This document shows, piece after piece, positions 1 through 46,843 of a stretch of DNA of 64,000 nucleotides. Each line of letters begins with the position of its first letter. Positions within the stretch are counted from its first letter, which is position 1. Made by a program: the position numbers and the translations under genes. The stretch comes from Escherichia coli. Its GTDB lineage: Bacteria > Pseudomonadota > Gammaproteobacteria > Enterobacterales > Enterobacteriaceae. Under the pieces are notes generated by a model. That model saw only the letters and a list, made by a program, of their open reading frames with translations. It was not told the origin of the DNA and did not search any database. The DNA lies in assembly GCF_003334765.1 (NCBI RefSeq), contig NZ_QOWT01000003.1, one strand, 5' to 3'.

Positions 1-332
1 ATATCCCCCATAACCCTCTCCTTAGCTTATACAGATATCATTGAGTGACCGGTGTTGAGAAATCCGGTGGTTTAGGGGGATAGAGCAACAATCGCACCAC
101 TCTTGCCAGGTTTGGCGGGAAATATAAAAAAATGTGAGGCGGCTCGAAACTTAAGGGCTTTTTGTGAATGAACTCACAGGTGCTAAATGAGAATTAAAAT
201 CACTCCTGAAAATTATTATTGCCAGCCCATTTATCAATTTTTCTCTTTTCTCAAAATCAGTGATTCCTTATCATTATGATAATGAGTGCCGGAAGGATTA
301 AATATTTGAACGCAATCGTTTAACTACGTTTT

Positions 333-911
333 CTAAATTTCAGTATACCTTTCCTTCGCTGTAATAAAGTCGTCCGGAGTATCAATATCTAAAATTATTT
401 CTGCATTTTCTATTTCGACGGAATAATGATCTCCCATAAGGAGTGCCTGACGCATATTGGTGACATTGGGTCGTTGGATTGCCTGCATCAGGCATGGTTT
501 TGACACTAAAATCGGATGGCCGGGGATGCCATTATGGAGTGGCAGTATTGCGCCATCATTTCGTAACGACCAGATTTTTCTAAAAATATCGATGGTGAGG
601 GTTGGCATGTCACCGTGGGTGAGAAAACAATGTTCTGTTTGCACTTCGGGTACTGCGGCCTTGACGGATGTTAGTAAACCCTGCGCATAATCTGGGTTGT
701 GAATAATAGTGATATTGCTCTGGTTCGCATAACGTTCGTGCAGTTCATTACCACGATAGCCGGTGACTAAAATAATTCGGCTACAAAACTGCAACGCATT
801 TTTGATACTTGTATCAAGAATTGTTCCCTGTTCCCAGGGTAACATCATTTTCCATTGCCCCATTCTTGATGATAATCCGGCAGCGGTAATTATACAGTCG
901 ATGGCTGACAT
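333..911 (-). CDS. mocA: molybdenum cofactor cytidylyltransferase (MocA/YgfJ)
   Basis: 192-aa ORF with N-terminal nucleotidyltransferase glycine-rich motif (AAGLSSRMG); length and sequence match recalled E. coli YgfJ/MocA; divergent from yqeC. Confidence 0.9.
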   Translation of the reverse strand: MSAIDCIITAAGLSSRMGQWKMMLPWEQGTILDTSIKNALQFCSRIILVTGYRGNELHERYANQSNITIIHNPDYAQGLLTSVKAAVPEVQTEHCFLTHGDMPTLTIDIFRKIWSLRNDGAILPLHNGIPGHPILVSKPCLMQAIQRPNVTNMRQALLMGDHYSVEIENAEIILDIDTPDDFITAKERYTEI

Positions 912-1013
912 AGTGGTTCCATTATTTATAGGGGCTAATAACGCCTGATAATTGCGTTACTTCCTGATGGATTAAGTTGGGGATAATTTATCCCAGAGAG
1001 GTCATAAAGACTC

Positions 1014-1784
1014 GTGAAAAGTATAGTTGACCCATCGGCATTAGTCATTGATTTAGGTGCGCAGAAACGTCCCACTGTGATTTCTGTTGTTGGTGCTGGG
1101 GGGAAAACCAGCTTGCTTTTTTGGCTGGCAGAACTGCTCCAGGCTAGCGGCAGGCGTGTGTTAATCACGACGACGACACATATGTTTATGCCAACGTCTC
1201 ACTGGCCCGTGGTTTTCTGTCGTGATCCCGCCATGCTTCCTCATGCGTCTCTTACATCCCCCATTTCATTTTGTTTTCACAGCTGGAAAGCGAACCAGGG
1301 AAAAGTGCAGGGATTTACGCCAGAAGCGATTGATGCACTGGTGCAACGACCAGAGTGTGACGTAATTCTCATTGAAGCAGATGGCTCGCGTGGAATGCCG
1401 TTAAAAGCGCCTGATGAGCACGAACCTTGCATACCCAAAAGCAGTTGCTGCGTGATTGCTGTGATGGGAGGACATACTTTGGGCGCGAAAGTGAGCACAG
1501 AAAATGTCCATCGCTGGTCGCAGTTTGCTGATATTACCGGGTTAACACCTGATGCAACCTTGCAACTGAGCGATCTCGTTGCGCTGGTTCGCCACCCTCA
1601 GGGGGCGTTTAAAAACGTACCGCAAGGTTGTCGGCGAGTCTGGTTCATTAACCGTTTTTCTCAATGTGAGAATGCGATTGCACAAAGCGAGCTCCTTCAA
1701 CCGCTGCAACAACACGACGTAGAGGCAATCTGGCTGGGCGATATACAAGAACATCCTGCAATCGCGCGCAGATTTGTGAATTAG
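1014..1784 (+). CDS. yqeC: selenium-dependent molybdenum hydroxylase system protein YqeC (P-loop protein)
   Basis: 256-aa ORF with Walker A-like motif VVGAGGKTS; synteny with yqeB/mocA as in E. coli K-12. Confidence 0.88.
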   Translation: MKSIVDPSALVIDLGAQKRPTVISVVGAGGKTSLLFWLAELLQASGRRVLITTTTHMFMPTSHWPVVFCRDPAMLPHASLTSPISFCFHSWKANQGKVQGFTPEAIDALVQRPECDVILIEADGSRGMPLKAPDEHEPCIPKSSCCVIAVMGGHTLGAKVSTENVHRWSQFADITGLTPDATLQLSDLVALVRHPQGAFKNVPQGCRRVWFINRFSQCENAIAQSELLQPLQQHDVEAIWLGDIQEHPAIARRFVN

Positions 1785-1831
1785 CGGCCCGGGTATTCCG
1801 GGTTACTGAAAGGATATCCATTGAGGTTGGT

Positions 1832-3457
1832 ATGAATATTTTCACAGAGGCTGCAAAACTCGAAGAGCAAAATTGTCCGTTTGCTATGGCGCAAATTGTT
1901 GATAGCCGAGGCTCGACTCCCCGCCATTCTGCACAAATGTTAGTGCGCGCCGATGGTTCTATCGTCGGTACAATTGGTGGCGGAATGGTTGAGCGGAAGG
2001 TGATTGAAGAGTCGCTTCAGGCATTGCAGGAACGTAAGCCGCGATTATTCCATGGACGTATGGCTCGTAACGGTGCGGATGCTGTCGGGTCAGATTGTGG
2101 AGGTGCAATGTCAGTATTTATCAGCGTCCATGGTATGCGTCCACGTCTGGTGTTGATTGGCGCGGGGCATGTCAACCGGGCGATAGCCCAGAGTGCGGCG
2201 CTATTAGGATTTGATATTGCCGTTGCTGATATTTATCGCGAAAGCCTCAATCCTGAACTATTCCCACCATCAACCACGCTTCTCCATGCTGAGTCGTTTG
2301 GTGCGGCAGTGGAAGCACTGGATATTCGCCCTGATAATTTTGTCCTGATTGCCACGAATAATCAGGATCGTGAAGCCCTCGACAAACTCATTGAACAGCC
2401 CATTGCATGGTTGGGGTTGCTGGCAAGTCGTCGCAAGGTTCAGCTTTTCCTGCGTCAATTGCGTGAGAAAGGCGTGGCTGAAGAACATATTGCCCGTTTA
2501 CATGCGCCCGTTGGTTACAACATAGGTGCGGAAACGCCGCAGGAGATCGCCATCAGCGTGCTGGCAGAAATATTACAGGTGAAAAATAACGCGCCGGGTG
2601 GGCTGATGATGAAACCTTCTCATCCTTCCGGACACCAGCTGGTGGTGATTCGCGGTGCGGGAGATATCGCCAGTGGTGTGGCGCTACGTCTGTATCATGC
2701 GGGTTTTAAAGTGATCATGCTGGAAGTGGAAAAACCGACAGTGATTCGTTGTACCGTGGCGTTTGCCCAGGCCGTGTTCGATGGCGAAATGACGGTCGAA
2801 GGCGTCACTGCTCGCCTGGCAACCAGCTCTGCGGAAGCGATGAAACTTACCGAACGCGGATTCATTCCTGTGATGGTAGATCCCGCCTGTTCATTGCTTG
2901 ATGAACTGAAACCGCTTTGCGTGGTGGACGCTATTCTGGCGAAACAGAATTTGGGAACGCGGGCAGATATGGCACCAGTAACAATCGCGCTTGGGCCGGG
3001 CTTTACTGCTGGGAAGGATTGTCATGCGGTAATTGAAACAAATCGCGGGCACTGGCTCGGTCAGGTGATTTACTCTGGTTGTGCGCAGGAGAATACCGGT
3101 GTTCCTGGCAATATTATGGGGCATACCACCCGACGGGTGATCCGTGCTCCTGCTGCAGGCATTATGCGATCCAACGTGAAATTAGGCGATCTGGTGAAAG
3201 AGGGCGATGTGATTGCCTGGATTGGTGAGCATGAAATTAAAGCACCGTTGACGGGGATGGTGCGTGGCTTGTTGAACGACGGCCTGGCAGTGGTTGGTGG
3301 TTTTAAAATTGGTGATATCGATCCTCGTGGTGAAACCGCTGATTTCACCAGCGTTTCTGATAAAGCCCGGGCGATTGGCGGCGGCGTACTTGAGGCGTTA
3401 ATGATGTTGATGCATCAGGGCGTGAAAGCGACAAAAGAAGTGCTGGAAGTGGCTTAA
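1832..3457 (+). CDS. yqeB: XdhC/CoxI-family molybdenum hydroxylase accessory protein YqeB
   Basis: 541-aa ORF, length and synteny match K-12 YqeB; tandem XdhC-like domains inferred from sequence pattern. Confidence 0.88.
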   Translation: MNIFTEAAKLEEQNCPFAMAQIVDSRGSTPRHSAQMLVRADGSIVGTIGGGMVERKVIEESLQALQERKPRLFHGRMARNGADAVGSDCGGAMSVFISVHGMRPRLVLIGAGHVNRAIAQSAALLGFDIAVADIYRESLNPELFPPSTTLLHAESFGAAVEALDIRPDNFVLIATNNQDREALDKLIEQPIAWLGLLASRRKVQLFLRQLREKGVAEEHIARLHAPVGYNIGAETPQEIAISVLAEILQVKNNAPGGLMMKPSHPSGHQLVVIRGAGDIASGVALRLYHAGFKVIMLEVEKPTVIRCTVAFAQAVFDGEMTVEGVTARLATSSAEAMKLTERGFIPVMVDPACSLLDELKPLCVVDAILAKQNLGTRADMAPVTIALGPGFTAGKDCHAVIETNRGHWLGQVIYSGCAQENTGVPGNIMGHTTRRVIRAPAAGIMRSNVKLGDLVKEGDVIAWIGEHEIKAPLTGMVRGLLNDGLAVVGGFKIGDIDPRGETADFTSVSDKARAIGGGVLEALMMLMHQGVKATKEVLEVA

Positions 3458-3464
3458 ATGAAAA

Positions 3465-3492
3465 TGGCCGGATGGTATTACCCACCCGGCCT
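3465..3492. repeat. 28-bp GC-rich hairpin repeat, copy 1 (tggccggatggtattacccacccggcct)
   Basis: Exact 28-bp direct repeat of the copy at 3645..3672; internal imperfect inverted repeat ggccggatgg/ccacccggcc; lies just after the yqeB stop. Confidence 0.7.
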
Positions 3493-3516
3493 GAGACTGA
3501 TGACAAACGCCAAATT

Positions 3517-3617
3517 GCCTGATGCGCTACGCTTATCAGGCCTACAAGTGCATTGCAATCTATTGAATTTGCTATGTTTTGTAGGACGGATAAGGCGCTC
3601 GCGCCGCATCCGGCATC
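3517..3617. repeat. REP/BIME-like element (two inverted REP palindromic units)
   Basis: gcctgatgcgctacgcttatcaggcctac and gtaggacggataaggcgctcgcgccgcatccggcatc resemble E. coli REP units in opposite orientations, between convergent yqeB and yqeA. Confidence 0.65.
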
Positions 3618-3644
3618 AACAAAGCGCACTTACTTGACAATCTT

Positions 3645-3672
3645 TGGCCGGATGGTATTACCCACCCGGCCT
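3645..3672. repeat. 28-bp GC-rich hairpin repeat, copy 2
   Basis: Identical to 3465..3492; lies just after the yqeA stop (minus strand). Confidence 0.7.
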
Positions 3673-3677
3673 TTAAA

Positions 3678-4610
3678 TTACTGACAAATCACCGTTCCTG
3701 TTTTGCCTTCAATCCCTTCTTTCGCTTTGCTCAATACGGTAATCAGTGCTTCACGACCTGCGCGAGAGCGAGCAAACGAGGCGGCAGCTTCCACTTTAGG
3801 CAGCATAGAACCTTTCGCAAAATGACCTTCTTCGATAAAGCGTTCAGCATCACTTAATGACAGGCGATCGAGCCACTGTTCATTCTCTTTACCGAAGTTA
3901 ATGGCCACTTTTTCTACCGCAGTCAGAATGATCAGCATATCGGCATCAATCATTTCTGCTAAACGGGCGCTGGCCCAGTCTTTATCGATAACCGCGCTGG
4001 CACCACGCAGATGGTTACCTTCACGAATAACAGGGATACCACCACCGCCAACGGTGATCACCACCTGACCTGCATCTACCAGAGCTTTAACCGTTTCTTT
4101 TTCAATGATATCAACCGGTTTTGGCGAGGCAACAACACGGCGATAGCCGCGACCAGCATCTTCTTTCAGAGTGTAACCCTGTTTTGTCAGTTGCTCTGCT
4201 TCTTGCTCGGTAAAGAACGAACCGATCGGCTTGGTCGGGTTGAGGAATGCCGGATCGTTAGCGTCGACTTCGACCTGAGTAACCAGCGTTGCTACAGGTT
4301 TATTAATGCCCCGAGAAAGCAGTTCTTCTCTTAAAGCGTTTTGTAGATCGTAACCAATATAACCCTGGCTTAATGCAACACAGACAGACATCGGCAGCAT
4401 TGGCGAGTGCGCTTCAGTTTTTGCGGCAGCTTCAAAGGCCTGGTTAATCATGCCCACCTGCGGCCCGTTACCATGAGTGACGATAACTTCATGTCCCTGG
4501 GCAATTAAATCAACAATTGCCTGAGAAGTAATTTTTACCGCTTTCATTTGCCCGGCCAGGTCATCGCCCAGCGCATTCCCGCCCAGGGCGAGAACAATTT
4601 TCTTACTCAT
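3678..4610 (-). CDS. yqeA: carbamate kinase-like protein YqeA
   Basis: 310-aa ORF; carbamate kinase/amino acid kinase family pattern (KIVLALGGNAL N-terminus); last gene of the ygeW-yqeA cluster. Confidence 0.9.
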   Translation of the reverse strand: MSKKIVLALGGNALGDDLAGQMKAVKITSQAIVDLIAQGHEVIVTHGNGPQVGMINQAFEAAAKTEAHSPMLPMSVCVALSQGYIGYDLQNALREELLSRGINKPVATLVTQVEVDANDPAFLNPTKPIGSFFTEQEAEQLTKQGYTLKEDAGRGYRRVVASPKPVDIIEKETVKALVDAGQVVITVGGGGIPVIREGNHLRGASAVIDKDWASARLAEMIDADMLIILTAVEKVAINFGKENEQWLDRLSLSDAERFIEEGHFAKGSMLPKVEAAASFARSRAGREALITVLSKAKEGIEGKTGTVICQ

Positions 4611-9809: not shown

Positions 9810-10284
9810 AAAGTCCCGGTAGTGGAATGACAGGCAAAGTGGTTTATTTCACTGTGACTTGCCAAAGTGATTGGTGTTTTCACAGCTATACCTGGGACTA
9901 ACAATAAGTGTGCCAGAATTATCCGCGCGGCTGCAAAAGACTAATTTGACGGATAATGTGTGGGGTTGATCACAAATTGATGCCAGCTTCTGGTTGTTTG
10001 TAAAATACGAAAACGTTTGGCTTTTTTTATCGCGTTATTTATTTGCTGCTAAGTATCAGAAATAAGATAAAGGGGCAGGCTATCTCTCTTCAGTTTGATA
10101 AACTCACCGCCGTAATTCTCATATTGATATAGAAATGTGATATCTCTTCCATAATTTCATTAGAAAATGATAAAAATCTTATGTTTTTATCAAAGCCAAT
10201 TTCGCCTGAGTTAATATCATCATGATCTGTGAACCATCAACGTCTTCAATGATCGACTTTTAAGTAAGTCTGGAAGGTAAAGCT

Positions 10285-12063
10285 ATGGAGCTTGCTACTA
10301 CGCAGTCAGTATTGATGCAAATTCAACCGACAATTCAGCGTTTTGCCAGAATGCTTGCCAGCGTTTTGCAGCTTGAGGTTGAGATCGTTGATGAAAACTT
10401 GTGTCGCGTTGCCGGAACGGGCGCGTATGGGAAGTTTCTTGGTCGCCAGTTGAGCGGCAACTCACGCCTGCTCCGCCACGTCCTGGAAACGAAAACTGAA
10501 AAAGTTGTGACACAGTCTCGCTTCGATCCCCTTTGCGAAGGTTGCGATAGTAAAGAAAATTGCCGCGAAAAAGCATTTCTGGGTACGCCTGTCATTTTAC
10601 AGGATCGTTGTGTTGGGGTGATAAGTTTGATTGCCGTTACCCACGAGCAACAAGAGCATATCAGTGATAATTTACGCGAATTTTCTGATTATGTTCGCCA
10701 TATATCCACCATTTTTGTTTCGAAACTTCTGGAGGATCAGGGGCCAGGAGATAACATCAGTAAAATATTTGCGACCATGATCGATAATATGGATCAGGGC
10801 GTATTAGTTGTAGATGATGAAAATCGGGTTCAGTTTGTTAATCAGACTGCCTTAAAAACACTTGGTGTTGTGCAAAATAATATTATTGGGAAACCTATCC
10901 GTTTCAGACCATTAACATTTGAGAGTAATTTTACCCATGGACATATGCAGCATATTGTTTCATGGGACGATAAAAGTGAATTAATCATTGGTCAATTGCA
11001 TAACATTCAGGGCCGACAATTATTTTTAATGGCGTTTCACCAATCGCATACCAGTTTTTCTGTAGCAAATGCACCTGATGAACCGCATATTGAACAATTG
11101 GTTGGCGAGTGCCGTGTTATGCGGCAATTAAAACGACTCATTAGCCGTATTGCACCCAGCCCATCCAGCGTTATGGTGGTTGGTGAAAGCGGCACGGGTA
11201 AAGAAGTCGTCGCCCGTGCAATCCATAAGTTGAGCGGAAGACGGAATAAACCCTTTATTGCTATCAACTGTGCCGCGATTCCGGAGCAGCTTCTGGAGAG
11301 CGAACTGTTCGGTTATGTTAAAGGTGCATTTACTGGCGCTTCTGCCAACGGTAAAACAGGGTTGATTCAGGCGGCGAATACGGGCACGCTGTTTCTCGAT
11401 GAAATAGGTGATATGCCATTAATGTTGCAGGCTAAATTACTGCGCGCTATTGAGGCACGTGAAATTCTGCCGATTGGTGCCAGTAGCCCAATACAAGTCG
11501 ACATTCGCATCATTTCTGCAACTAATCAGAATTTGGCCCAGTTCATTGCCGAAGGTAAATTCCGCGAAGATCTCTTCTACCGACTTAATGTTATCCCGAT
11601 AACTCTGCCACCGCTGCGTGAACGTCAGGAAGATATTGAACTATTGGTGCATTACTTTTTACATCTGCATACCCGTCGTCTGGGATCGGTTTATCCTGGC
11701 ATTGCTCCCGATGTCGTCGAAATATTGCGTAAGCATCGTTGGCCCGGAAACCTGCGCGAGTTAAGCAATTTGATGGAATATCTGGTTAACGTGGTTCCTT
11801 CAGGTGAAGTTATCGACAGCACGCTATTGCCGCCAAATCTGCTGAATAATGGCACAACGGAGCAAAGTGATGTAACAGAGGTCAGTGAGGCGCACCTGTC
11901 ACTCGATGATGCGGGCGGCACGGCGCTGGAGGAGATGGAAAAGCAAATGATCCGCGAGGCGCTTTCACGTCATAACAGCAAGAAGCAAGTTGCTGATGAA
12001 CTGGGCATCGGCATTGCTACGCTCTATCGCAAGATTAAGAAATATGAGTTGTTAAACACATAA
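10285..12063 (+). CDS. ygeV: sigma54-dependent transcriptional activator YgeV
   Basis: 592-aa ORF; AAA+ sigma54-interaction domain (GESGTGKE Walker A, ESELFGY motif) and C-terminal HTH; N-terminal sensory domain. Confidence 0.93.
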   Translation: MELATTQSVLMQIQPTIQRFARMLASVLQLEVEIVDENLCRVAGTGAYGKFLGRQLSGNSRLLRHVLETKTEKVVTQSRFDPLCEGCDSKENCREKAFLGTPVILQDRCVGVISLIAVTHEQQEHISDNLREFSDYVRHISTIFVSKLLEDQGPGDNISKIFATMIDNMDQGVLVVDDENRVQFVNQTALKTLGVVQNNIIGKPIRFRPLTFESNFTHGHMQHIVSWDDKSELIIGQLHNIQGRQLFLMAFHQSHTSFSVANAPDEPHIEQLVGECRVMRQLKRLISRIAPSPSSVMVVGESGTGKEVVARAIHKLSGRRNKPFIAINCAAIPEQLLESELFGYVKGAFTGASANGKTGLIQAANTGTLFLDEIGDMPLMLQAKLLRAIEAREILPIGASSPIQVDIRIISATNQNLAQFIAEGKFREDLFYRLNVIPITLPPLRERQEDIELLVHYFLHLHTRRLGSVYPGIAPDVVEILRKHRWPGNLRELSNLMEYLVNVVPSGEVIDSTLLPPNLLNNGTTEQSDVTEVSEAHLSLDDAGGTALEEMEKQMIREALSRHNSKKQVADELGIGIATLYRKIKKYELLNT

Positions 12064-12073
12064 CCTCAGTGAA

Positions 12074-12104
12074 TCCGGCCTGAATTCAGGCCGGATATCC
12101 TTTT
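12074..12104. terminator. palindromic hairpin between convergent ygeV and xdhC (likely bidirectional terminator)
   Basis: Perfect inverted repeat tccggcctgaa/ttcaggccgga followed by tatcctttt on the plus strand; sits between the ygeV stop and xdhC stop. Confidence 0.55.
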
Positions 12105-12582
12105 ACTTCGTTTTCTCGCAATCCAGAACTGTATTTACAATCATCTGATACCCCGTGCAGCGACAAAGATTTCCCGCCAGTCCGCGACGAATTTCCGTAA
12201 TGGTTAATGGCTTCTCGCGTGGTTTCGCCAGCATTGCCGTGGTAGCCATAATCAGGCCAGGCGTACAAAACCCGCACTGCACTGCGCCGGATTTCGCATA
12301 AGCCTGCTGAACATGAGAAAGTTTTCCGCCTTTCGCTTCACCTTCCAGCGTGCGGATCTCTTTTCCTTCAGCCCAGGCGGCAAGGTATAAGCAACTGTCT
12401 ATTGCTGTGCCGTCGACCAACACCGTACAGGCACCACATTCACCCACGCAGCACCCTTGTTTGACACTTAGCAGTCCTTGTTCGCGGAGTAATTCCGAGA
12501 GCGGCGTGCCTGGTGCGGCGTGAAGCTGAAAAGGCATCCCGTTAATGGTGCATTCGATGGTAATTGTTTCGCTGTGATTCAT
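12103..12582 (-). CDS. xdhC: xanthine dehydrogenase iron-sulfur subunit
   Basis: 159-aa ORF with 2Fe-2S cysteine clusters ([16 protein letters not shown]); overlaps the xdhB stop by 4 nt. Confidence 0.93.
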
Positions 12583-13457
12583 TGCAATTTTCCCCCCGCC
12601 GCGGCGACGGCTTCGCTAATCACTTTTTTGGTCATCGTCTGGATGAGATGCAGACGAAACTCTTTACTGGCCCGCCATGAAGAACGCGGGGCGACATCTT
12701 GCAGGACAGATTCGCTGATAGCTTCCAGCGTTTGCAGGTTTAATGGCGCATTTTGTGCAGTCTGTTCGGCATGTTGGCAGCGAATCGGCGTTGGCGCGGC
12801 AACACCAAATGCCAGGCGTAATTCGCTGAAATTGCCGTTATCCAGTCGGCAATGTGCGGCGCAGCCAATCGTTGAAATATCCATTGCGTCGCGCATGGCA
12901 TATTTAAAATGCGCGCTGCCCGCGTGTTCTTTCGGCTGTGGCGGAAAATGAAAGGCGACGAGGATTTCGTCATGCTCAAGAGACACTTTGCCCGGCCCGG
13001 TGTGAAAGCCATTAATCGGGACGAAACGAACACCGCGCGGGGAGTGGATCTCCAGTTTCGCGTCATAAATTAGCGTTGGCGTGGCAGAATCTGCGCTGGT
13101 GGCACCGTTGCAAATATTTCCACCGTAGGTAGCGACGTTACGGATCTGCGGTCCAGCAATGGACGTGGCCGCAGCACATAACGCCGGGAGATGACGTTGA
13201 GTTATAGGATCTTCTATTAGCTGGGTAAATGTCGTTGCAGAGCCGATACGTAGCGAGCCATCTTCCGCCAGCGTAATTCCCCGCAGCTCCGCCAGATTAT
13301 GAATATCAACAATATGGCGATAACGGTCATTGTGATGGTGGAGCTGAATCAGTACGTCAGTGCCACCGGCGAGCAGTTTGGCCTGCGGGTTGTCAGCCAG
13401 CAGGTTGATGGCATCGGCAAGGGTTGCTGCGCGATGGTAAGAAGCAAAATCAAACAT
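12579..13457 (-). CDS. xdhB: xanthine dehydrogenase FAD-binding subunit
   Basis: 292-aa ORF; synteny xdhA-xdhB-xdhC. Confidence 0.93.
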
Positions 13458-13467
13458 GATGTTATCC

Positions 13468-15726
13468 TCAAATCAATCCTGCCAGATGGAACTCTTCATA
13501 TAACCGTTTTGGCGTCAGCGGCAGTGTATTGATTGCAACACCGGTAGCCATCTTCACCGCGTTACGAATAGCAGCGGCAACAGGAATTATTGGTGGCTCA
13601 CCCAGTGACTTATGTCCGTATGCGGATTGCGGCTCATTGATTTCGACGAACGCGCTTTCCAGTTGTGGCAGATCCGGCATGGTCGGCATTTTGTAATCCA
13701 GCAGATTGGGGTTACGGACCACGCCGCTTTTAGCATCGATGATCATCTCTTCAAATAGCGCCCAGCCAATGCCCATTCCCATTCCGCCGTGTACCTGACC
13801 TTCTGCCAGCAGTGGATTAAGAATATGCCCTGAATCATGAACGTTGAGGATGCGGTTGATGGTGACTTTGCACAGCGCAATATCGACCGTCAGATCAACA
13901 AAGGTACAGCCAAACGCCGGTGGGTTAGTGGTGGTTTTGATGGAGCTTTCAGCAGAGAGCTGCCCGCCGCGTTCAGGGTGGTAGAAAGCGTCCATCGCCA
14001 AATCTTTTAACGACATTAACGGCTCTTCCGGTCGTTCAACCAGCACGATATGGCCTTTTATCAGGGTCAGATTCATCGCTGACTGATGTAGCATGACTGC
14101 GGCGTGAGCGATGATTTTCTCTTTTAATAATAGTGCCGCACTGCGCAGCGCAGGCGCGGCAACATAGCTCTGGCGTGAGGCAAATGCGCCGGGATCGAAC
14201 GGCGTAACGTCGGTATCTTGAGTTGAAATAACGCGAACGTCGCTGACCGGAACCCCCACGGTTTCTGCCACCATTTGCGAGAAGACGGTGTCGGCACCCT
14301 GACCGATTTCCGTCGCGCCGCTTTGCACGTTGATGGTTCCATCCTGATTCATCAGAAGGCGCGCGCCTGCTATTTCTACGCCGACAGGCCAGGTGTTAGA
14401 GGTGTAGCTAAAACAGGCGACGCCAACGCCGCGGCGCAAATTGCCTTGCTGGTTCTGGCATTCTGCACGGCGTTTTTCCCATTCAAAGATTTTCCGGCCT
14501 TTTTCAAGACACTCCGGCAACCCTGCGCTGTAAATACGTTTGCCCGTGAGCGGATTAGCATCTCCTTCGCGGGCGGCGTTGCGTAAACGAATTTCAACAG
14601 GATCAATACCTAACGCTGTCGCGGCGTCATCAAGCATAGACTCAACGGCAAATACGACTTGTGGCGCGCCATAACCACGCATCGCACCAGCCGAGGGGAG
14701 GTTGGTATAGCAGGTCTTTGAACTGTAAGCGTAGGCACAACGAGGATAAAGGTAAGCGACTTTATTCCCCCCCGCAGAAGCGATGGAGTGCCCGTGAGAT
14801 GCATAAGCGCCGGTGTTAGACAGAACATCCAGACTATAACCTTTCAATGTTCCGTCGCGGTTCACGCCCATTTGCCCGTCAATGGTAAAAGCGTGGCGGG
14901 TACGGGTTGCGAGGAAACACTCTTCACGGCTAAGGGAAACTTTCACCGGAATGCCGCCAAGCTTGCTGGTCAGGAATGCCGCCATTGGCTCTTCCAGTAC
15001 ATCCTGTTTATTACCAAAACCGCCACCGACAAATGGTTTGATGACTCGTACGCATGACCAGGGAATATCCAGCGCCTGACCAACCACGCGGCGAACAATG
15101 TGCGGGATCTGGGTGCTGGAAACGATGGTAATTCGCGAGTCATCCTCCATCCACGCCAGCGATGTTACGCTTTCCATGTGACAATGTTGAATAACGGGGG
15201 TCTGATAGTGCCCCTGTACCTGGTAGTCGGCGGCATCGATTGTTTGTTGGACATTACCCGTCGACATCGTGCTTTGTTTCAGTAAATTGCCACCGTTATG
15301 GATTGGTGCAGCGTCTTCTGCCAGCGCCGCTTCTGGCGTGGTGATAACGGGTAATTCTTGCCACTCAATGCTGACCAATTGCGCCGCTTTTTCTGCCGTG
15401 AGTTCATCGCGGGCCACGACGATGGCAACGGCGTCACCATGATGACGAACATGGCGAGTTAGCAGTGCGCGATCGGCGGTATCGCGCTTGTTTTCGTCAA
15501 GTGTCCAGGCATGCCCAGCTGTAGCGAATGGAATATCAGGCACATCTTCCCAGGTAAAAATCGCCAGTACGCCCGGCAAACTTCTGGCTTGTTCATCATT
15601 AATACTTACGGCATAACCATGTGCGATAGGGCTACGTACATATTTCGCATAACACATGCCCGCCATAACATAATCGTCAGTATATCGTGCCCGCCCGGTG
15701 ACCTTAGCAATGGCATCGACGCGCAT
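13468..15726 (-). CDS. xdhA: xanthine dehydrogenase molybdenum-binding subunit
   Basis: ORF track extends to 15765, but the internal ATG giving MRVDAIAKVTG yields the 752-aa length recalled for XdhA. Confidence 0.92.
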   Translation of the reverse strand: MRVDAIAKVTGRARYTDDYVMAGMCYAKYVRSPIAHGYAVSINDEQARSLPGVLAIFTWEDVPDIPFATAGHAWTLDENKRDTADRALLTRHVRHHGDAVAIVVARDELTAEKAAQLVSIEWQELPVITTPEAALAEDAAPIHNGGNLLKQSTMSTGNVQQTIDAADYQVQGHYQTPVIQHCHMESVTSLAWMEDDSRITIVSSTQIPHIVRRVVGQALDIPWSCVRVIKPFVGGGFGNKQDVLEEPMAAFLTSKLGGIPVKVSLSREECFLATRTRHAFTIDGQMGVNRDGTLKGYSLDVLSNTGAYASHGHSIASAGGNKVAYLYPRCAYAYSSKTCYTNLPSAGAMRGYGAPQVVFAVESMLDDAATALGIDPVEIRLRNAAREGDANPLTGKRIYSAGLPECLEKGRKIFEWEKRRAECQNQQGNLRRGVGVACFSYTSNTWPVGVEIAGARLLMNQDGTINVQSGATEIGQGADTVFSQMVAETVGVPVSDVRVISTQDTDVTPFDPGAFASRQSYVAAPALRSAALLLKEKIIAHAAVMLHQSAMNLTLIKGHIVLVERPEEPLMSLKDLAMDAFYHPERGGQLSAESSIKTTTNPPAFGCTFVDLTVDIALCKVTINRILNVHDSGHILNPLLAEGQVHGGMGMGIGWALFEEMIIDAKSGVVRNPNLLDYKMPTMPDLPQLESAFVEINEPQSAYGHKSLGEPPIIPVAAAIRNAVKMATGVAINTLPLTPKRLYEEFHLAGLI

Positions 15727-15820
15727 GCATGATTCACCCGTAGCGGTTGCTTCCCGCGCTTCCATAGAAATCCCCTCGATTTGAACATTTGGTTCTTATG
15801 GCAAAGATTTAGTCTAAGCA

Positions 15821-15837
15821 GGCAAGATTTACGCCAG
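15821..15837 (-). promoter_or_regulatory. candidate sigma54 (-24/-12) promoter for xdhABC
   Basis: Minus strand reads cTGGCGTaaatcTTGCc: GG and GC separated by 10 nt as in the TGGCAC-N5-TTGC consensus; about 95 nt upstream of the xdhA start; ygeV (sigma54 activator) is adjacent. Confidence 0.5.
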
Positions 15838-17013: not shown

Positions 17014-17087
17014 GCGGGCGTAGTTCAATGGTAGAACGAGAGCTTCCCAAGCTCTATACGAGGGTTCGATTCCCTTCGCCCGCTCCA
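17014..17087 (+). tRNA. glyU: tRNA-Gly (anticodon CCC)
   Basis: 74-nt sequence GCGGGCGTAGTTCAATGGTAGAACGAGAGCTTCCCAAGCTC...CGCCCGCTCCA with 7-bp acceptor stem, CCC anticodon in loop CUUCCCAAG, T-loop GGTTCGATTCC, encoded CCA end. Confidence 0.95.
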
Positions 17088-17200: not shown

Positions 17201-18853
17201 GTGGTTATCTACGCTTTTAACAAACGATTGATGGAATATTTTATGAAAGGGAAATCTGCATTAACTCTTCTGCTCGCTGGTATATTTTCGTGCGGCACAT
17301 GCCAGGCGACAGGGGCAGAAGTGACGAGTGAATCTGTATTTAACATTCTTAATTCCACGGGGGCAGCAACAGATAAAAGTTATTTATCGTTAAATCCAGA
17401 TAAGTATCCTAATTATCGTCTTCTGATTCACTCAGCCAAATTACAAAATGAAATAAAGAGCCACTATACCAAAGACGAAATTCAAGGATTGCTAACATTA
17501 ACAGAAAACACACGAAAGTTAACGTTGACGGAGAAACCCTGGGGAACGTTTATTCTTGCTTCTACTTTCGAAGATGACAAAACAGCGGCAGAAACCCACT
17601 ATGATGCTGTCTGGTTGAGGGATAGTTTATGGGGCTATATGGCATTAGTATCAGATCAGGGAAATAGTGTAGCCGCAAAAAAGGTTCTGCTCACCCTGTG
17701 GGATTATATGTCTACGCCCGACCAGATTAAGCGGATGCAGGACGTCATTAGCAACCCAAAACGACTGGATGGAATTCCCGTGCAAATGAATGCTGTGCAT
17801 ATCCGATTTGACAGCAACTCCCCCGTGATGGCAGATGTGCAGGAAGAAGGCAAGCCGCAGCTGTGGAACCATAAACAAAATGATGCTTTAGGTCTTTACC
17901 TTGATCTCCTTATACAAGCAATCAACACTGGTACTATTAACGCTGAAGATTGGCAAAAAGGTGACCGATTAAAGTCGGTTGCGCTGCTGATTGCTTATCT
18001 GGATAAAGCCAATTTCTATGTTATGGAAGATTCCTGAGCATGGGAAGAAGATGCCCGATTAAACACATCTTCCGTTGCACTGGTGACCTCTGGACTGGAA
18101 CGTTTGTCAAACCTACTCTCGAAGAAAGACTCTGTTTTTGTCTCTGATTTACTACGCGAAGCTAAAGTCAATGAACTGGATGAAACTCTTTCAACAACGA
18201 GGTTGAACCACCTCATAGATAAAGGTTATGAAAGAATAACGTTACAGCTTGATTTAGGGGGAGAATCCCCAGGTTATCTGGAAAAAGATAAACATTACAG
18301 AGAAGCCGATGCGGCTTTACTTAATGTTATTTATCCTACAAATCTTTCAAAGATAAACACCAGAAGAAAAGAGCAAGTTCTAAAAATAGTTAAAAAACTA
18401 GCAGGTCCGTATGGTATAAAAAGATACGAGAAGGATAATTATCAGTCGGCAAATTTTTGGTTCAATGATATTAAAACCGATACCGATCAAAATTCGCATG
18501 CAAAAAGAGAAAAGAGCTTCATTCCATCAACAGAAGCAGAATGGTTTTTTGACTCATGGTATGCAAAATCAGCAGCAATTGTTTATAAAGAATCAAGAAA
18601 AGAAGAGTATTTGAATGACTCAGTACAATTTATGAATAGATCATTGGCCCAAATAACAGGCGAGAATATGATTGGTGCAAATGGCAGGAGCGTACCAGAA
18701 ATGGCACTTCCCGAAAGCTATAACTATATCCACAAGTCGGGAACTTTGCATGAAGCGCCAAGCCCTATCATTCCGCTAAATTGGTCGAAAGCTTCAATGA
18801 CTCTCATGTTGAAAGAGATGTCCAACCTTATCAATGATGAGGGAATTAAATAG
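17201..18853 (+). pseudogene. ygeQ: glycoside hydrolase family 15-like lipoprotein, interrupted by in-frame TGA (ygeQ-like)
   Basis: Two ORFs (17201..18037, 18083..18853) in the same frame separated by a single TGA at 18035..18037; GH15-like WEE...NTSS motif immediately after the stop; N-terminal signal/lipobox-like segment. Confidence 0.75.
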
Positions 18854-18984
18854 TTTTCATAATGAGTTACAGCACAACGTTGGGTATTGACTGAGCAAGA
18901 TGAACGACAAGGACAACGACATCAGCCTTATGAGGAGCAAGAAAATGAAAGCAAATTCGAAAACGATCAGAAGGATGAAAGTTA

Positions 18985-19932
18985 ATGTTCGGTCTGAGGA
19001 CAGTAAATCGAAACACTCATACGTTTGAAACCACTTTTCAAAATTGGAAAGAAAATGGCGAAGATGTTGCATTATTAATGCCCGAATTTAGTGCTAAATG
19101 GCTACCGATAGCAGAAGAGAGTGGCAGCTGGTCTGGATGGGTATTGCTTGGAGAAATATTTCCCTTAATTTCATCTGAGCTCGCTGGGATGGCTTTAATG
19201 CCAGAAACGGAAAGGTTAATAGGGGAATGCCTCAGTTTATCCAGTTCCCCGTTAAATCTAAAGCATCCTGAACTAAAATATAATCGTTTGCGCGTAGGTA
19301 AAGTATTTGATGGAGTATTGAGCCCTGCTCAACCACTAATAAGAATATGGACAGGGGAATTGAATCTTTGGTTAGATAAAGTCACAGTCTGCCAATACGG
19401 AAACGCTCCAGCGTTAGACAAAAAATCGTTATATTGCTCCATTCATTTTGTAATTGGATTTAGTAAAACATGTTACAGAAGTCTTGTTGATATTGAAGTT
19501 GGTGATGTTTTATTAATCTCAAATAATTTGGCTTATGCGGTTGTTTATAATACAAAAATTTGTGATTTAATTTATCCAGAGGAGTTAAAAATGGCTGATC
19601 ATTTTGAGTACGAGGAAGATTTTGAAACAGATGATTTTGATATCAAAAAAAACGAGAGTGAGATTTATGATGAAAATGACGATCAGATGATTAATAGTTT
19701 TGAAGACTTGCCTGTAAAAATTGAGTTTGTTCTTGGTAAGAAAATAATGAATCTATATGAAATAGACGAACTCTGTGCAAAAAGAATAATATCTCTGCTT
19801 TCTGAATCTGAGAAAAATATAGAAATACGTGTAAATGGCGCGCTAACTGGCTATGGCGAACTTGTTGAAGTGGATGATAAATTGGGCGTAGAGATTCATT
19901 CTTGGTTATCAGGGCATAATAATGTCAAATAG
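18985..19932 (+). CDS. epaO: T3SS cytoplasmic sorting platform/C-ring protein (SctQ; SpaO/YscQ family)
   Basis: 315 aa; C-terminal SpoA-like region (VKIEFVLGKK...EIRVNGALTGYGELVEVDDKLGVEI); acidic linker; immediately precedes the sctRSTU homologs. Confidence 0.8.
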   Translation: MFGLRTVNRNTHTFETTFQNWKENGEDVALLMPEFSAKWLPIAEESGSWSGWVLLGEIFPLISSELAGMALMPETERLIGECLSLSSSPLNLKHPELKYNRLRVGKVFDGVLSPAQPLIRIWTGELNLWLDKVTVCQYGNAPALDKKSLYCSIHFVIGFSKTCYRSLVDIEVGDVLLISNNLAYAVVYNTKICDLIYPEELKMADHFEYEEDFETDDFDIKKNESEIYDENDDQMINSFEDLPVKIEFVLGKKIMNLYEIDELCAKRIISLLSESEKNIEIRVNGALTGYGELVEVDDKLGVEIHSWLSGHNNVK

Positions 19933-46559: not shown

Positions 46560-46641
46560 CCCAGAGGTATTGATAGGTGAAGTCAACTTCGGGTTGAGCA
46601 CATGAATTACACCAGCCTGCGCAGATGCGCAGGTTTTTTTT
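46560..46641 (+). ncRNA. omrB: small regulatory RNA OmrB (RygB)
   Basis: 82-nt unit from CCCAGAGGTATTGAT to the terminator hairpin cctgcgcagatgcgcagg plus T8; shares 5' and 3' ends with the adjacent copy; galR-aas intergenic location. Confidence 0.88.
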
Positions 46642-46755
46642 GCCGGTCATCAATCTGTAACAGTAACCGACAATTTACACACCTCGTTGCATTTCCCTTC
46701 ATTCCTTTGCGTTTTCTCGCTGGCGAAGAGTCGTCGTGCAGACCACAATCAAGAT

Positions 46756-46843
46756 CCCAGAGGTATTGATTGGTGAGATTATTCGGTACGCTCTTCGTAC
46801 CCTGTCTCTTGCACCAACCTGCGCGGATGCGCAGGTTTTTTTT
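46756..46843 (+). ncRNA. omrA: small regulatory RNA OmrA (RygA)
   Basis: 88-nt unit with the same conserved 5' end and terminator hairpin cctgcgcggatgcgcagg plus T8; tandem with omrB. Confidence 0.88.

Follow-up and report, generated by a model that had tools for sequence, protein, structure and literature searches.

The mocA, yqeC, and yqeB genes of Escherichia coli as a cofactor-maturation module, and their candidate role in selenium delivery to molybdenum hydroxylases

A known locus within a purine and urate gene cluster

The 64-kb stretch of E. coli DNA analyzed here (the window) carries three intact genes near its left edge, followed by a repeat-bearing intergenic region:

333-911, minus strand: mocA (ygfJ), intact open reading frame of 192 aa; same interval in RefSeq
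1014-1784, plus strand: yqeC, intact open reading frame with a GTG start, 256 aa; same interval in RefSeq
1832-3457, plus strand: yqeB, intact open reading frame of 541 aa; same interval in RefSeq
3458-3677, between convergent genes: yqeB-arcC (yqeA) intergenic region with REP-like palindromes

The DNA of positions 1 to 4000 was 100% identical to that of E. coli K-12 MG1655, in which mocA (b2877), yqeC (b2876), and yqeB (b2875) are the same genes, with zero differences in coordinates or annotation. The original prediction of a mocA, yqeC, and yqeB trio at 333 to 3457 agreed with the open reading frames, RefSeq, and NCBIfam cutoffs alike; the locus was already known, and its recovery here is a re-identification without new biology. 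The trio, in which yqeC and yqeB are spaced by 47 bp, is the cofactor-maturation module of the known K-12 purine/urate catabolic supercluster, composed of xdhABC, ygeV, ygeWXY-hyuA-yqeA, yqeBC, mocA, and ygfK-ssnA-ygfM-xdhD.

Within the yqeB-arcC region, two 27-nt hairpin copies (3465-3491 and 3647-3673) bracket the REP-like palindromes, and because of this repeat the DNA of the region matched approximately 23 places per genome. Scans of positions 1 to 3800 for sigma-70 promoters and terminators gave counts near shuffle expectation, the sole noteworthy element being the terminator-like hairpin at 3491-3466 (minus strand), which is followed by a T-rich tail. Rfam, run at gathering thresholds over the full window, returned only OmrA, OmrB, and tRNA-Gly, and the presence of a Moco riboswitch or another known RNA close to the trio was therefore rejected.

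Domain architecture of MocA, YqeC, and YqeB

MocA scored 214.2 bits against NCBIfam model TIGR03310, above the curated equivalog cutoff of 186.45. It is a CTP:molybdopterin cytidylyltransferase with a published activity (Neumann et al. [quoted passage not shown] The role first proposed for mocA, making the cytidine dinucleotide form of the molybdenum cofactor, is thus borne out by published work on the identical K-12 protein. The gene lies upstream of ygfK-ssnA-ygfM-xdhD in the same orientation and reads directly into those genes.

Profile searches placed YqeC and YqeB in the expected families rather than in unrelated ones, with scores that, like that of MocA, lie well outside what chance would give. 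YqeC matched TIGR03172 (240.9 bits; cutoff, 73.05) and Pfam PF19842 (E = 5.5e-42) and retains an intact Walker A motif (G27AGGKTS33), so that its earlier label as a P-loop protein was correct. It models as a SIMIBI-class P-loop NTPase fold, a class whose members include the metal-center chaperones UreG, HypB, and CooC. Sequence identity to UreG, HypB, CooC, MeaB, and MobB was just 9 to 20%, a PDB sequence search with YqeC found no relative, and its own invariant motifs, E121ADG124 and H136EPCIP141 (the latter containing Cys139), set it apart from the G3E/SIMIBI metallocenter-assembly NTPases.

YqeB was originally described as XdhC-like, a description that holds for its N-terminal half and fails for its C-terminal half:

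1832-2572, plus strand: yqeB N-terminal half, residues 1-247, a predicted XdhC-family molybdenum cofactor-binding chaperone module
2642-3457, plus strand: yqeB C-terminal half, residues 271-541, the YqeB/EF2563-specific domain

Residues 12 to 247 matched Pfam XdhC_CoxI (PF02625; E = 9.8e-20) and XdhC_C (PF13478; E = 1.2e-32), domains shared with XdhC, PaoD, and PucA, the Moco-insertion chaperones of xanthine oxidase-family enzymes, and the PDB relatives of this half were the solved XdhC-like proteins 2we7 and 3on5. By analogy, an XdhC-type job would be expected of YqeB: binding and protecting Moco, helping to modify its terminal ligand, and inserting it. The match to the XdhC equivalog TIGR02964, at 110.8 bits, nonetheless fell below the cutoff of 161.6; judged from its sequence, YqeB belongs to the XdhC family yet is not the canonical XdhC of xanthine dehydrogenase. 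It also differs from canonical XdhC and PaoD in carrying an extra domain of 270 residues and from XdhC, PaoD, and PucA in not being cotranscribed with a hydroxylase.

That extra domain (TIGR03309, 417 bits against a cutoff of 220, residues 271 to 526) models as a Rossmann-like module, a biotin carrier-like barrel-sandwich hybrid, and a long C-terminal helix. A PDB sequence search with it found no relative, and no solved structure matched the whole domain; its chemistry is therefore guessed from the pieces of the fold. In the model, the barrel has the barrel-sandwich hybrid fold of biotinyl/lipoyl carrier domains. A carrier role was nonetheless rejected: the family consensus of the barrel hairpin (IAxVxxxPVxA) has no conserved Lys, and the target lysine of the Bacillus biotin/lipoyl attachment protein aligns with Glu in YqeB. 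The barrel is thus unlike the swinging arms of BCCP and the E2 lipoyl domain. The Rossmann-like module was likewise considered as a duplicate of the XdhC_C Rossmann domain and rejected (hhalign probability of 7.5%, generic beta-alpha-beta only). Invariant Arg and Lys are plentiful in the C-terminal half; in the numbering of the domain fragment, to which 261 is added for positions in YqeB, its invariant residues are R45, K110, E141, R144, R174, R217, K231, D234, and K250. The YqeB-specific domain showed no invariant cysteine, a residue on which a perselenide relay would normally depend; we counted this against the involvement of selenium.

Hydroxylases beside the trio and their shared regulation

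The trio was first described as lacking its catalytic partner in the window. This was not the case, as xdhA, xdhB, and xdhC are present within it, and the remaining hydroxylase genes lie just beyond its left edge, where the original prediction expected ygfK, ssnA, ygfM, and xdhD. Both sets, together with the sigma-54 elements of the cluster, are as follows:

1-11, minus strand: initial 11 bases of ygfK, start codon included; the reverse complement ATGGGGGATAT encodes MGDI
84-100, minus strand: ygfK sigma-54 promoter, exact match to GTGGTGCGATTGTTGCT; published ChIP-seq site (PMC4591121)
1415-1431, plus strand: sigma-54 promoter inside yqeC, driving yqeB; identical to the published site TGAGCACGAACCTTGCA
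9901-9915, minus strand: sigma-54 promoter of the ygeW-ygeX-ygeY-hyuA-yqeA operon, match to TGGCACACTTATTGT; ChIP-seq site OS30 (PMC4591121)
10285-12063, plus strand: ygeV (annotation), the sole sigma-54 enhancer-binding protein in the cluster
12103-15765, minus strand: xdhC-xdhB-xdhA, a molybdenum hydroxylase of the xanthine dehydrogenase family
15822-15836, minus strand: sigma-54 promoter of the xdhA operon, a promoter match agreeing with site OS29 (PMC4591121)

The xdhC-xdhB-xdhA genes, with xdhA 8.6 kb from yqeB, matched NF007426 (1486 bits), NF007427 (534 bits), and NF007387 (342 bits). On the other side, the ygfK start codon lies at window position 11, and ygfK heads the ygfK-ssnA-ygfM-xdhD operon, whose remainder lies past the left edge of the window; RefSeq annotation places xdhD 5.2 to 8.1 kb beyond that edge, and its product scored 2123 bits against TIGR03313. 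The partner appeared to be missing because the 64-kb window was cut there; with hydroxylase genes in both the window and the left flank, the trio is no orphan. The E. coli XdhD-YgfM enzyme reduces urate to 2,8-dioxopurine (PMC12507026), and YqeB has been proposed as a common XdhC-type chaperone of XdhD and XdhABC (PMC2997495).

The cluster appears to be coregulated, in that xdhA, ygeW, yqeB, and ygfK each have a ChIP-verified sigma-54 promoter (four in total). That of ygfK falls within the 321 bp separating mocA from ygfK, and mutating the site within yqeC abolishes YqeB protein (PMC4591121). YgeV is the presumed activator of all four. A de novo scan for TGGCAC-N5-TTGC with up to 2 mismatches gave 79 matches against 73.6 expected; being near chance, it was uninformative alone, and the analysis relied on the four ChIP-verified sites only.

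Across E. coli genomes, pangenome matches numbered 5176 for the trio, 5178 for xdhD, and 5322 for xdhA. We rejected these counts as a means of choosing the client: a single shared deletion can account for the near-equal values of the trio and xdhD, which are therefore not functional evidence. In E22, the trio-lacking strain examined, the trio and xdhD have been lost in one IS1-bounded deletion, with one end inside ygeV and the other shortly before uacT.

Selenium and a proposed route of cofactor maturation

The route by which selenium enters molybdenum hydroxylases is the least understood in the biological use of this element, and these enzymes drive the anaerobic breakdown of urate and purines by gut bacteria, with a bearing on gout and hyperuricemia. 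That yqeB and yqeC mark the selenium-cofactor trait, as first noted for this DNA, is supported by published analyses (PMC2276186, PMC5029168, PMC11448449), and the YqeB/EF2563 domain occurs where SelD is present (PMC5029168; bioRxiv 10.1101/2025.04.24.650524). In Clostridioides difficile, deletion of yqeB phenocopies that of selD on xanthine and urate (PMC11448449), and in Clostridium sporogenes both 2,8-dioxopurine dehydrogenase and xanthine dehydrogenase depend on SelD (bioRxiv 10.1101/2025.04.24.650524). As in E. coli, TIGR03309 and TIGR03172 proteins of Enterococcus faecalis, C. difficile, and purinolytic clostridia are encoded beside purine-catabolic molybdenum hydroxylases, and the E. 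coli locus has two features expected of a selenium-dependent hydroxylase system, namely yqeB and yqeC together and a xanthine oxidase-family hydroxylase nearby. In the literature searched, selenium dependence was demonstrated for clostridial enzymes only, genetically in C. difficile and C. sporogenes. The Firmicutes domain is usually a stand-alone protein of ~260 aa often adjoining selD, whereas that of E. coli is fused to XdhC. E. coli K-12 is known to carry selD at another place in its genome, and its SelD served as a marker in the preprint (bioRxiv 10.1101/2025.04.24.650524). No selD was found within the window or its retrieved flanks, which we counted against a role for selenium.

A catalog of natural fusions, drawn from 150 cluster representatives of the YqeB-specific domain, ties MocA, YqeC, XdhC, and this domain into one machine; together with the folds of YqeC and the domain itself, it is the modest addition made here. 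The domain stood alone in 76 representatives. Fusions with XdhC, which may come first or second in the chain, numbered at least 28, those with YqeC 10, and those with a MocA-like cytidylyltransferase about 11 (6 + 1 by BLAST and 4 typed later). One 777-aa protein (P0246) unites YqeC, MocA, and YqeB in a single chain. Its operon runs yedF, a cysteine desulfurase/selenocysteine lyase-like gene, a Se/S carrier, selD, the fusion, and a TIGR03311 selenium-dependent xanthine dehydrogenase (1240 bits). A yqeC-yqeB-selD operon is also present in another genome, and a further protein (P0324) joins a MeaB-type GTPase to the YqeB domain. A genomic context scan kept 80 loci, 54 of them from Collinsella; because this genus dominates, statistics were limited to the 26 other taxa, in which the 10 kb around the YqeB domain held an XdhC-like gene in 22/26, YqeC in 20/26, a Mo-hydroxylase large subunit in 11/26, and SelD in 4/26. 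The neighboring hydroxylases in other genomes were of the XdhA, XdhD, and TIGR03311 types.

From sequence, structural models, and analogy, we consider it probable, at roughly 60%, that the trio makes, probably selenates, and inserts MCD into XdhD and perhaps XdhA. In this route, MCD made by MocA would be held by the XdhC-like N-terminal half of YqeB, while the YqeB-specific half would bind an anionic donor or cofactor and swap the terminal molybdenum ligand for selenium from the selenophosphate of SelD, a selenium counterpart of the sulfuration carried out by XdhC with a NifS-like enzyme. YqeB would then insert the finished cofactor into the apoenzyme, and YqeC may assist or gate delivery via nucleotide hydrolysis in a manner helpful but not strictly required. 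The clients would be XdhD-YgfM first and, second, probably XdhABC. Two observations on YqeC were counted against the trio acting in this way: enterobacterial yqeC diverges much faster than yqeB, and in C. difficile a yqeC deletion had no phenotype, the gene being dispensable there (PMC11448449). The biochemical roles were described at the outset as poorly defined, which agrees with PMC11448449; nothing newer was found in the literature.

An alternative is that in E. coli YqeB acts, together with YqeC, as a conventional sulfur-type XdhC chaperone delivering sulfurated MCD to XdhD and/or XdhABC, the selenium label being guilt by association from clostridia and enterococci. The N-terminal half is clearly of the XdhC family, selD is unlinked to the locus, and a published comparison found no active-site residues that distinguish selenium-type from sulfur-type enzymes (bioRxiv 10.1101/2025.04.24.650524). 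In the literature searched, we found no report of selenium in E. coli XdhD or XdhA (nor, more broadly, of selenium dependence of XdhD or XdhABC) and no test of E. coli yqeB, yqeC, or selD for these hydroxylase activities, and the study that purified active XdhD-YgfM mentions selenium only in the title of a cited reference. Yet the 417-bit match shows a full TIGR03309 domain in E. coli YqeB, one about 44 to 60% identical (best segment) to its other genomic relatives; the domain is encoded in operons alongside selD, yedF, and Se/S-carrier genes and, by the literature, is found where SelD is present (PMC5029168). Moreover, a sulfur-type chaperone, PaoD, separately serves PaoABC (PMC2997495). We regard the sulfur-type alternative as unlikely.

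The trio could also serve XdhD-YgfM only, with XdhABC matured independently of YqeB and YqeC, as mocA runs straight into the ygfK-xdhD operon, as the selenium-linked NCBIfam set TIGR03309 to TIGR03315 covers XdhD, YgfM, YgfK, and SsnA and not XdhABC, and as matches to xdhA occur in ~146 more complete E. coli genomes than do matches to the trio or xdhD, strain E22 being one confirmed case. Strains without the trio, however, are also without mocA, so that their XdhABC may simply be inactive. The xdhA operon has a sigma-54 promoter just as yqeB does; the hydroxylase encoded beside the YqeB domain most resembles the XdhA type in Endozoicomonas, Thermosediminibacter, and two MAGs, one from Bacillota and one from Archaeoglobi; the xanthine dehydrogenase of C. 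sporogenes too needs SelD (bioRxiv 10.1101/2025.04.24.650524); and, besides PaoD, E. coli has no other XdhC homolog to serve XdhABC (PMC2997495). An exclusive role for XdhD thus seems rather unlikely to us. An older reading, in which the locus would serve selenate reduction as an accessory system, survives in the name of YgfK, still a "putative selenate reductase subunit" in RefSeq and NCBIfam; it is very improbable, given the biochemical evidence that YgfK reduces 2,8-dioxopurine as part of the urate pathway (PMC12507026) and a neighborhood made up entirely of purine/urate catabolic genes.

Within the preferred reading of selenated MCD delivered to XdhD and perhaps XdhA, we put forward tentatively, and at somewhat less than even odds, that the YqeB-specific domain is an uncharacterized kind of selenotransferase, passing selenium from selenophosphate to the terminal position of XdhC-bound MCD in a process channeled with MocA and YqeC. 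Such an enzyme would combine a Rossmann-like module with a barrel of the carrier-like kind, would have no catalytic cysteine, and would be without a solved whole-domain counterpart; the natural YqeC-MocA-YqeB fusion suggests a channeled complex of the three. If such a selenotransferase exists, XdhD of K-12, and perhaps XdhA, would be selenium-dependent enzymes, a use of the element in the most thoroughly studied of all bacteria. Because E. coli K-12 is genetically tractable and carries the system in full, the locus offers a good experimental handle.

The trio and its probable catalytic partners

The genes mocA, yqeC and yqeB are present as originally named, with open reading frames, RefSeq intervals and family scores agreeing to the base, and we regard their identities as near certain. 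They and the hydroxylase genes to their right are arranged as follows.

333-911, minus strand: mocA, intact open reading frame, 192 aa; RefSeq interval identical
1014-1784, plus strand: yqeC, intact open reading frame, GTG start, 256 aa; RefSeq interval identical
1832-3457, plus strand: yqeB, intact open reading frame, 541 aa; RefSeq interval identical
12103-15765: xdhC-xdhB-xdhA, a xanthine-oxidase-family hydroxylase, 8.6 kb from yqeB

All three products passed curated NCBI cut-offs: MocA for TIGR03310 (214 bits, cut-off 186), YqeC for TIGR03172 (241 bits, cut-off 73) and YqeB for TIGR03309 (417 bits, cut-off 220). The possibility raised earlier, that profile HMMs would place YqeB and YqeC in unrelated families, thus falls away. 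YqeC also matched PF19842, and residues 12-247 of YqeB correspond to the Pfam families XdhC_CoxI and XdhC_C. The locus is already known and belongs to the bacterial genome with the best annotation; window positions 1-4000 match E. coli K-12 MG1655 at 100% identity.

The original prediction held that the trio had no catalytic partner in the window, a claim contradicted by xdhC-xdhB-xdhA (1486 bits to NF007426, 534 to NF007427 and 342 to NF007387). Its expectation that ygfK, ssnA, ygfM and xdhD would lie to the left was borne out: mocA directly precedes the ygfK-ssnA-ygfM-xdhD operon and shares its strand; the start codon of ygfK is found at window position 11, and xdhD lies 5.2-8.1 kb past position 1 (XdhD, 2123 bits to TIGR03313; YgfM, 490 bits to TIGR03312). 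The flanking genome therefore does contain a molybdenum hydroxylase gene, and the trio looked like an "orphan" only because of where the window ends. We consider the trio to be a maturation module for the neighbouring hydroxylases (probability about 0.8).

yqeB is expressed from a sigma-54 promoter located within yqeC, and sigma-54 ChIP-seq sites also lie ahead of ygfK, ygeW and xdhA (PMC4591121). These published sites were located in the window:

84-100, minus strand: sigma-54 site, ygfK
1415-1431, plus strand: sigma-54 site, yqeB
9901-9915, minus strand: sigma-54 site, ygeW
15822-15836, minus strand: sigma-54 site, xdhA

The cluster encodes a single sigma-54 activator, YgeV (10285-12063), which would act on these promoters. 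The arrangement suggests that yqeB shares its regulation with both hydroxylase operons.

A proposed route for selenium and its rival

MocA is defined by experiment as the CTP:molybdopterin cytidylyltransferase, and YqeB was proposed as an XdhC-type chaperone common to XdhD and XdhABC (PMC2997495). XdhD-YgfM reduces urate to 2,8-dioxopurine, and the remaining steps of the urate pathway are performed by YgfK, SsnA, HyuA, YgeW, YgeY, YgeX and YqeA (PMC12507026). In Clostridium sporogenes, SelD is needed by 2,8-dioxopurine dehydrogenase and xanthine dehydrogenase (bioRxiv 10.1101/2025.04.24.650524). In Clostridioides difficile, loss of yqeB gives the selD phenotype on xanthine and urate, whereas loss of yqeC has no effect; according to the authors of that study, both proteins lack known domains (PMC11448449).

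We propose that, once MocA has made the cytosine-dinucleotide form of the molybdenum cofactor (the step established by experiment), the XdhC half of YqeB would hold it and the YqeB-specific half would swap a terminal ligand of the molybdenum for selenium supplied by SelD. Once complete, the cofactor would be inserted into apo-XdhD and probably apo-XdhA, and YqeC would aid delivery through nucleotide hydrolysis. For E. coli specifically, we lean slightly toward selenium chemistry. The main rival, in which the E. coli system would install sulfur instead, seems to us unlikely. The literature searched yielded no E. coli study of yqeB, yqeC, mocA or selD in urate or xanthine metabolism, and no selenium measurement on E. 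coli XdhD or XdhA. Elsewhere, the entire trio occurs as a single YqeC-MocA-YqeB chain (P0246, 777 aa) in a six-gene operon (4338-12573 of L003, a Logan SRR30309637 contig) of yedF, a cysteine desulfurase/selenocysteine-lyase-like gene, a Se/S carrier, selD, the fusion and a selenium-dependent xanthine dehydrogenase (TIGR03311, 1240 bits), in effect a full set of genes for selenium delivery and the hydroxylase. The trio locus is a convenient place for testing how selenium is inserted.

The YqeB-specific domain (residues 271-541) includes a long C-terminal helix, and the domain as a whole had no matching solved chain. Its invariant residues are mainly Gly, Arg, Lys, Glu and Asp, with no cysteine among them, a composition that may fit binding of a phosphorylated ligand, either selenophosphate or the cofactor pyrophosphate. 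The YqeB barrel was ruled out as a swinging-arm carrier because the biotin/lipoate attachment lysine is not conserved, and descent of the domain's Rossmann part from a copy of that in XdhC_C was undetectable (hhalign probability 7.5%).

For YqeC, a sequence search of the PDB found no detectable relative. Alignment of 20 relatives showed the following to be invariant: the Walker A motif (G27AGGKTS33), E121ADG124, H136EPCIP141 including Cys139, R167-W168 (His166 being nearly so), H194, G197 and K200. The 183-aa YqeC annotated in some E. coli records would be missing the conserved P-loop; the GTG start that yields 256 aa is therefore correct. YqeC diverges far faster than YqeB across the same genera (identity to E. 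coli for YqeB and YqeC, respectively: Klebsiella aerogenes, 79% and 53%; Yokenella, 79% and 59%; Morganella, 65% and 47%; Aeromonas veronii, 67% and about 40%), which parallels its dispensability in C. difficile.

Fusions and neighbours in other genomes

Among the 150 best representatives, the YqeB domain stood alone in 76 and was joined to XdhC in 28 or more (the two occurring in both orders), to YqeC in 10, to a MocA-like cytidylyltransferase in about 11 (one with a ModE domain too) and to a MeaB-type GTPase in 1; ModC-, Nudix- or RNase H-like modules were occasional. The unusual partners were a MeaB-type G3E GTPase (P0324; L004, 538-2337), ModE plus MocA-like (P0276), a ModC-like ABC ATPase (P0277), a Nudix hydrolase (P0334) and RNase H-like modules (P0280 and P0308); some of these fusions, from short metagenomic contigs, could be gene-calling artefacts. 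Other contigs carried the order yqeC-yqeB-selD, or a YqeB-YqeC fusion followed by xdhC.

A one-genome-per-species scan gave 80 loci, of which Collinsella accounted for 54. Among the 26 other taxa, genes no more than 10 kb from the YqeB domain encoded XdhC-like proteins (22/26), YqeC (20/26), a hydroxylase large subunit (11/26), MocA-like proteins (9/26) and SelD (4/26). The nearest type among the 11 large subunits was XdhD in Edwardsiella and Tissierella; TIGR03311 in Vallitalea (two loci), Clostridium cavendishii, a Syntrophomonadaceae MAG and Photobacterium; and XdhA in Endozoicomonas, a Bacillota MAG, Thermosediminibacter and an Archaeoglobi MAG. The marker is thus not bound to one hydroxylase subtype, and given this variety the in-window XdhABC remains in play as a candidate client. 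In the archaeal locus (L079, Archaeoglobi archaeon JdFR-42), the YqeB-specific domain adjoins an XdhC-like module and a hydroxylase of the XdhA type that has FAD and Fe-S subunits, so the trait extends beyond bacteria.

E. coli populations and other window features

Of 5426 complete E. coli genomes, 5176 carried the trio (about 4.6% lacked it), 5178 xdhD and 5322 xdhA; we rejected these counts as an indicator of the client, as they reflect physical linkage. Strain E22 (L088) has an IS1-bounded deletion that starts inside ygeV and stops just before uacT, by which the trio and xdhD were lost together and xdhABC was kept without mocA, yqeB and yqeC. In FAM21845 (L087), an IS1/IS3-associated replacement starts inside mocA and leads into an arsenic-resistance island.

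The convergent yqeB/arcC intergenic region (3458-3677) holds two REP-like palindromes between copies of a 27-nt direct repeat, ggccggatggtattacccacccggcct (3465-3491 and 3647-3673), which itself forms a hairpin; because of this REP-like DNA, a 4-kb query returned about 23 matches per E. coli genome. At 18471-22132, annotation records an inserted IS2 and a series of genes with frameshifts or truncations (an orgA/mxiK-like fragment, a LuxR-type regulator and a lytic transglycosylase); these are what is left in K-12 of the decayed ETT2 type III secretion system. An Rfam scan of the whole window found no Moco riboswitch; it did find the tandem sRNAs OmrA and OmrB (86 and 97 bits; 46560-46843) and tRNA-Gly (17014-17084), all known K-12 features.
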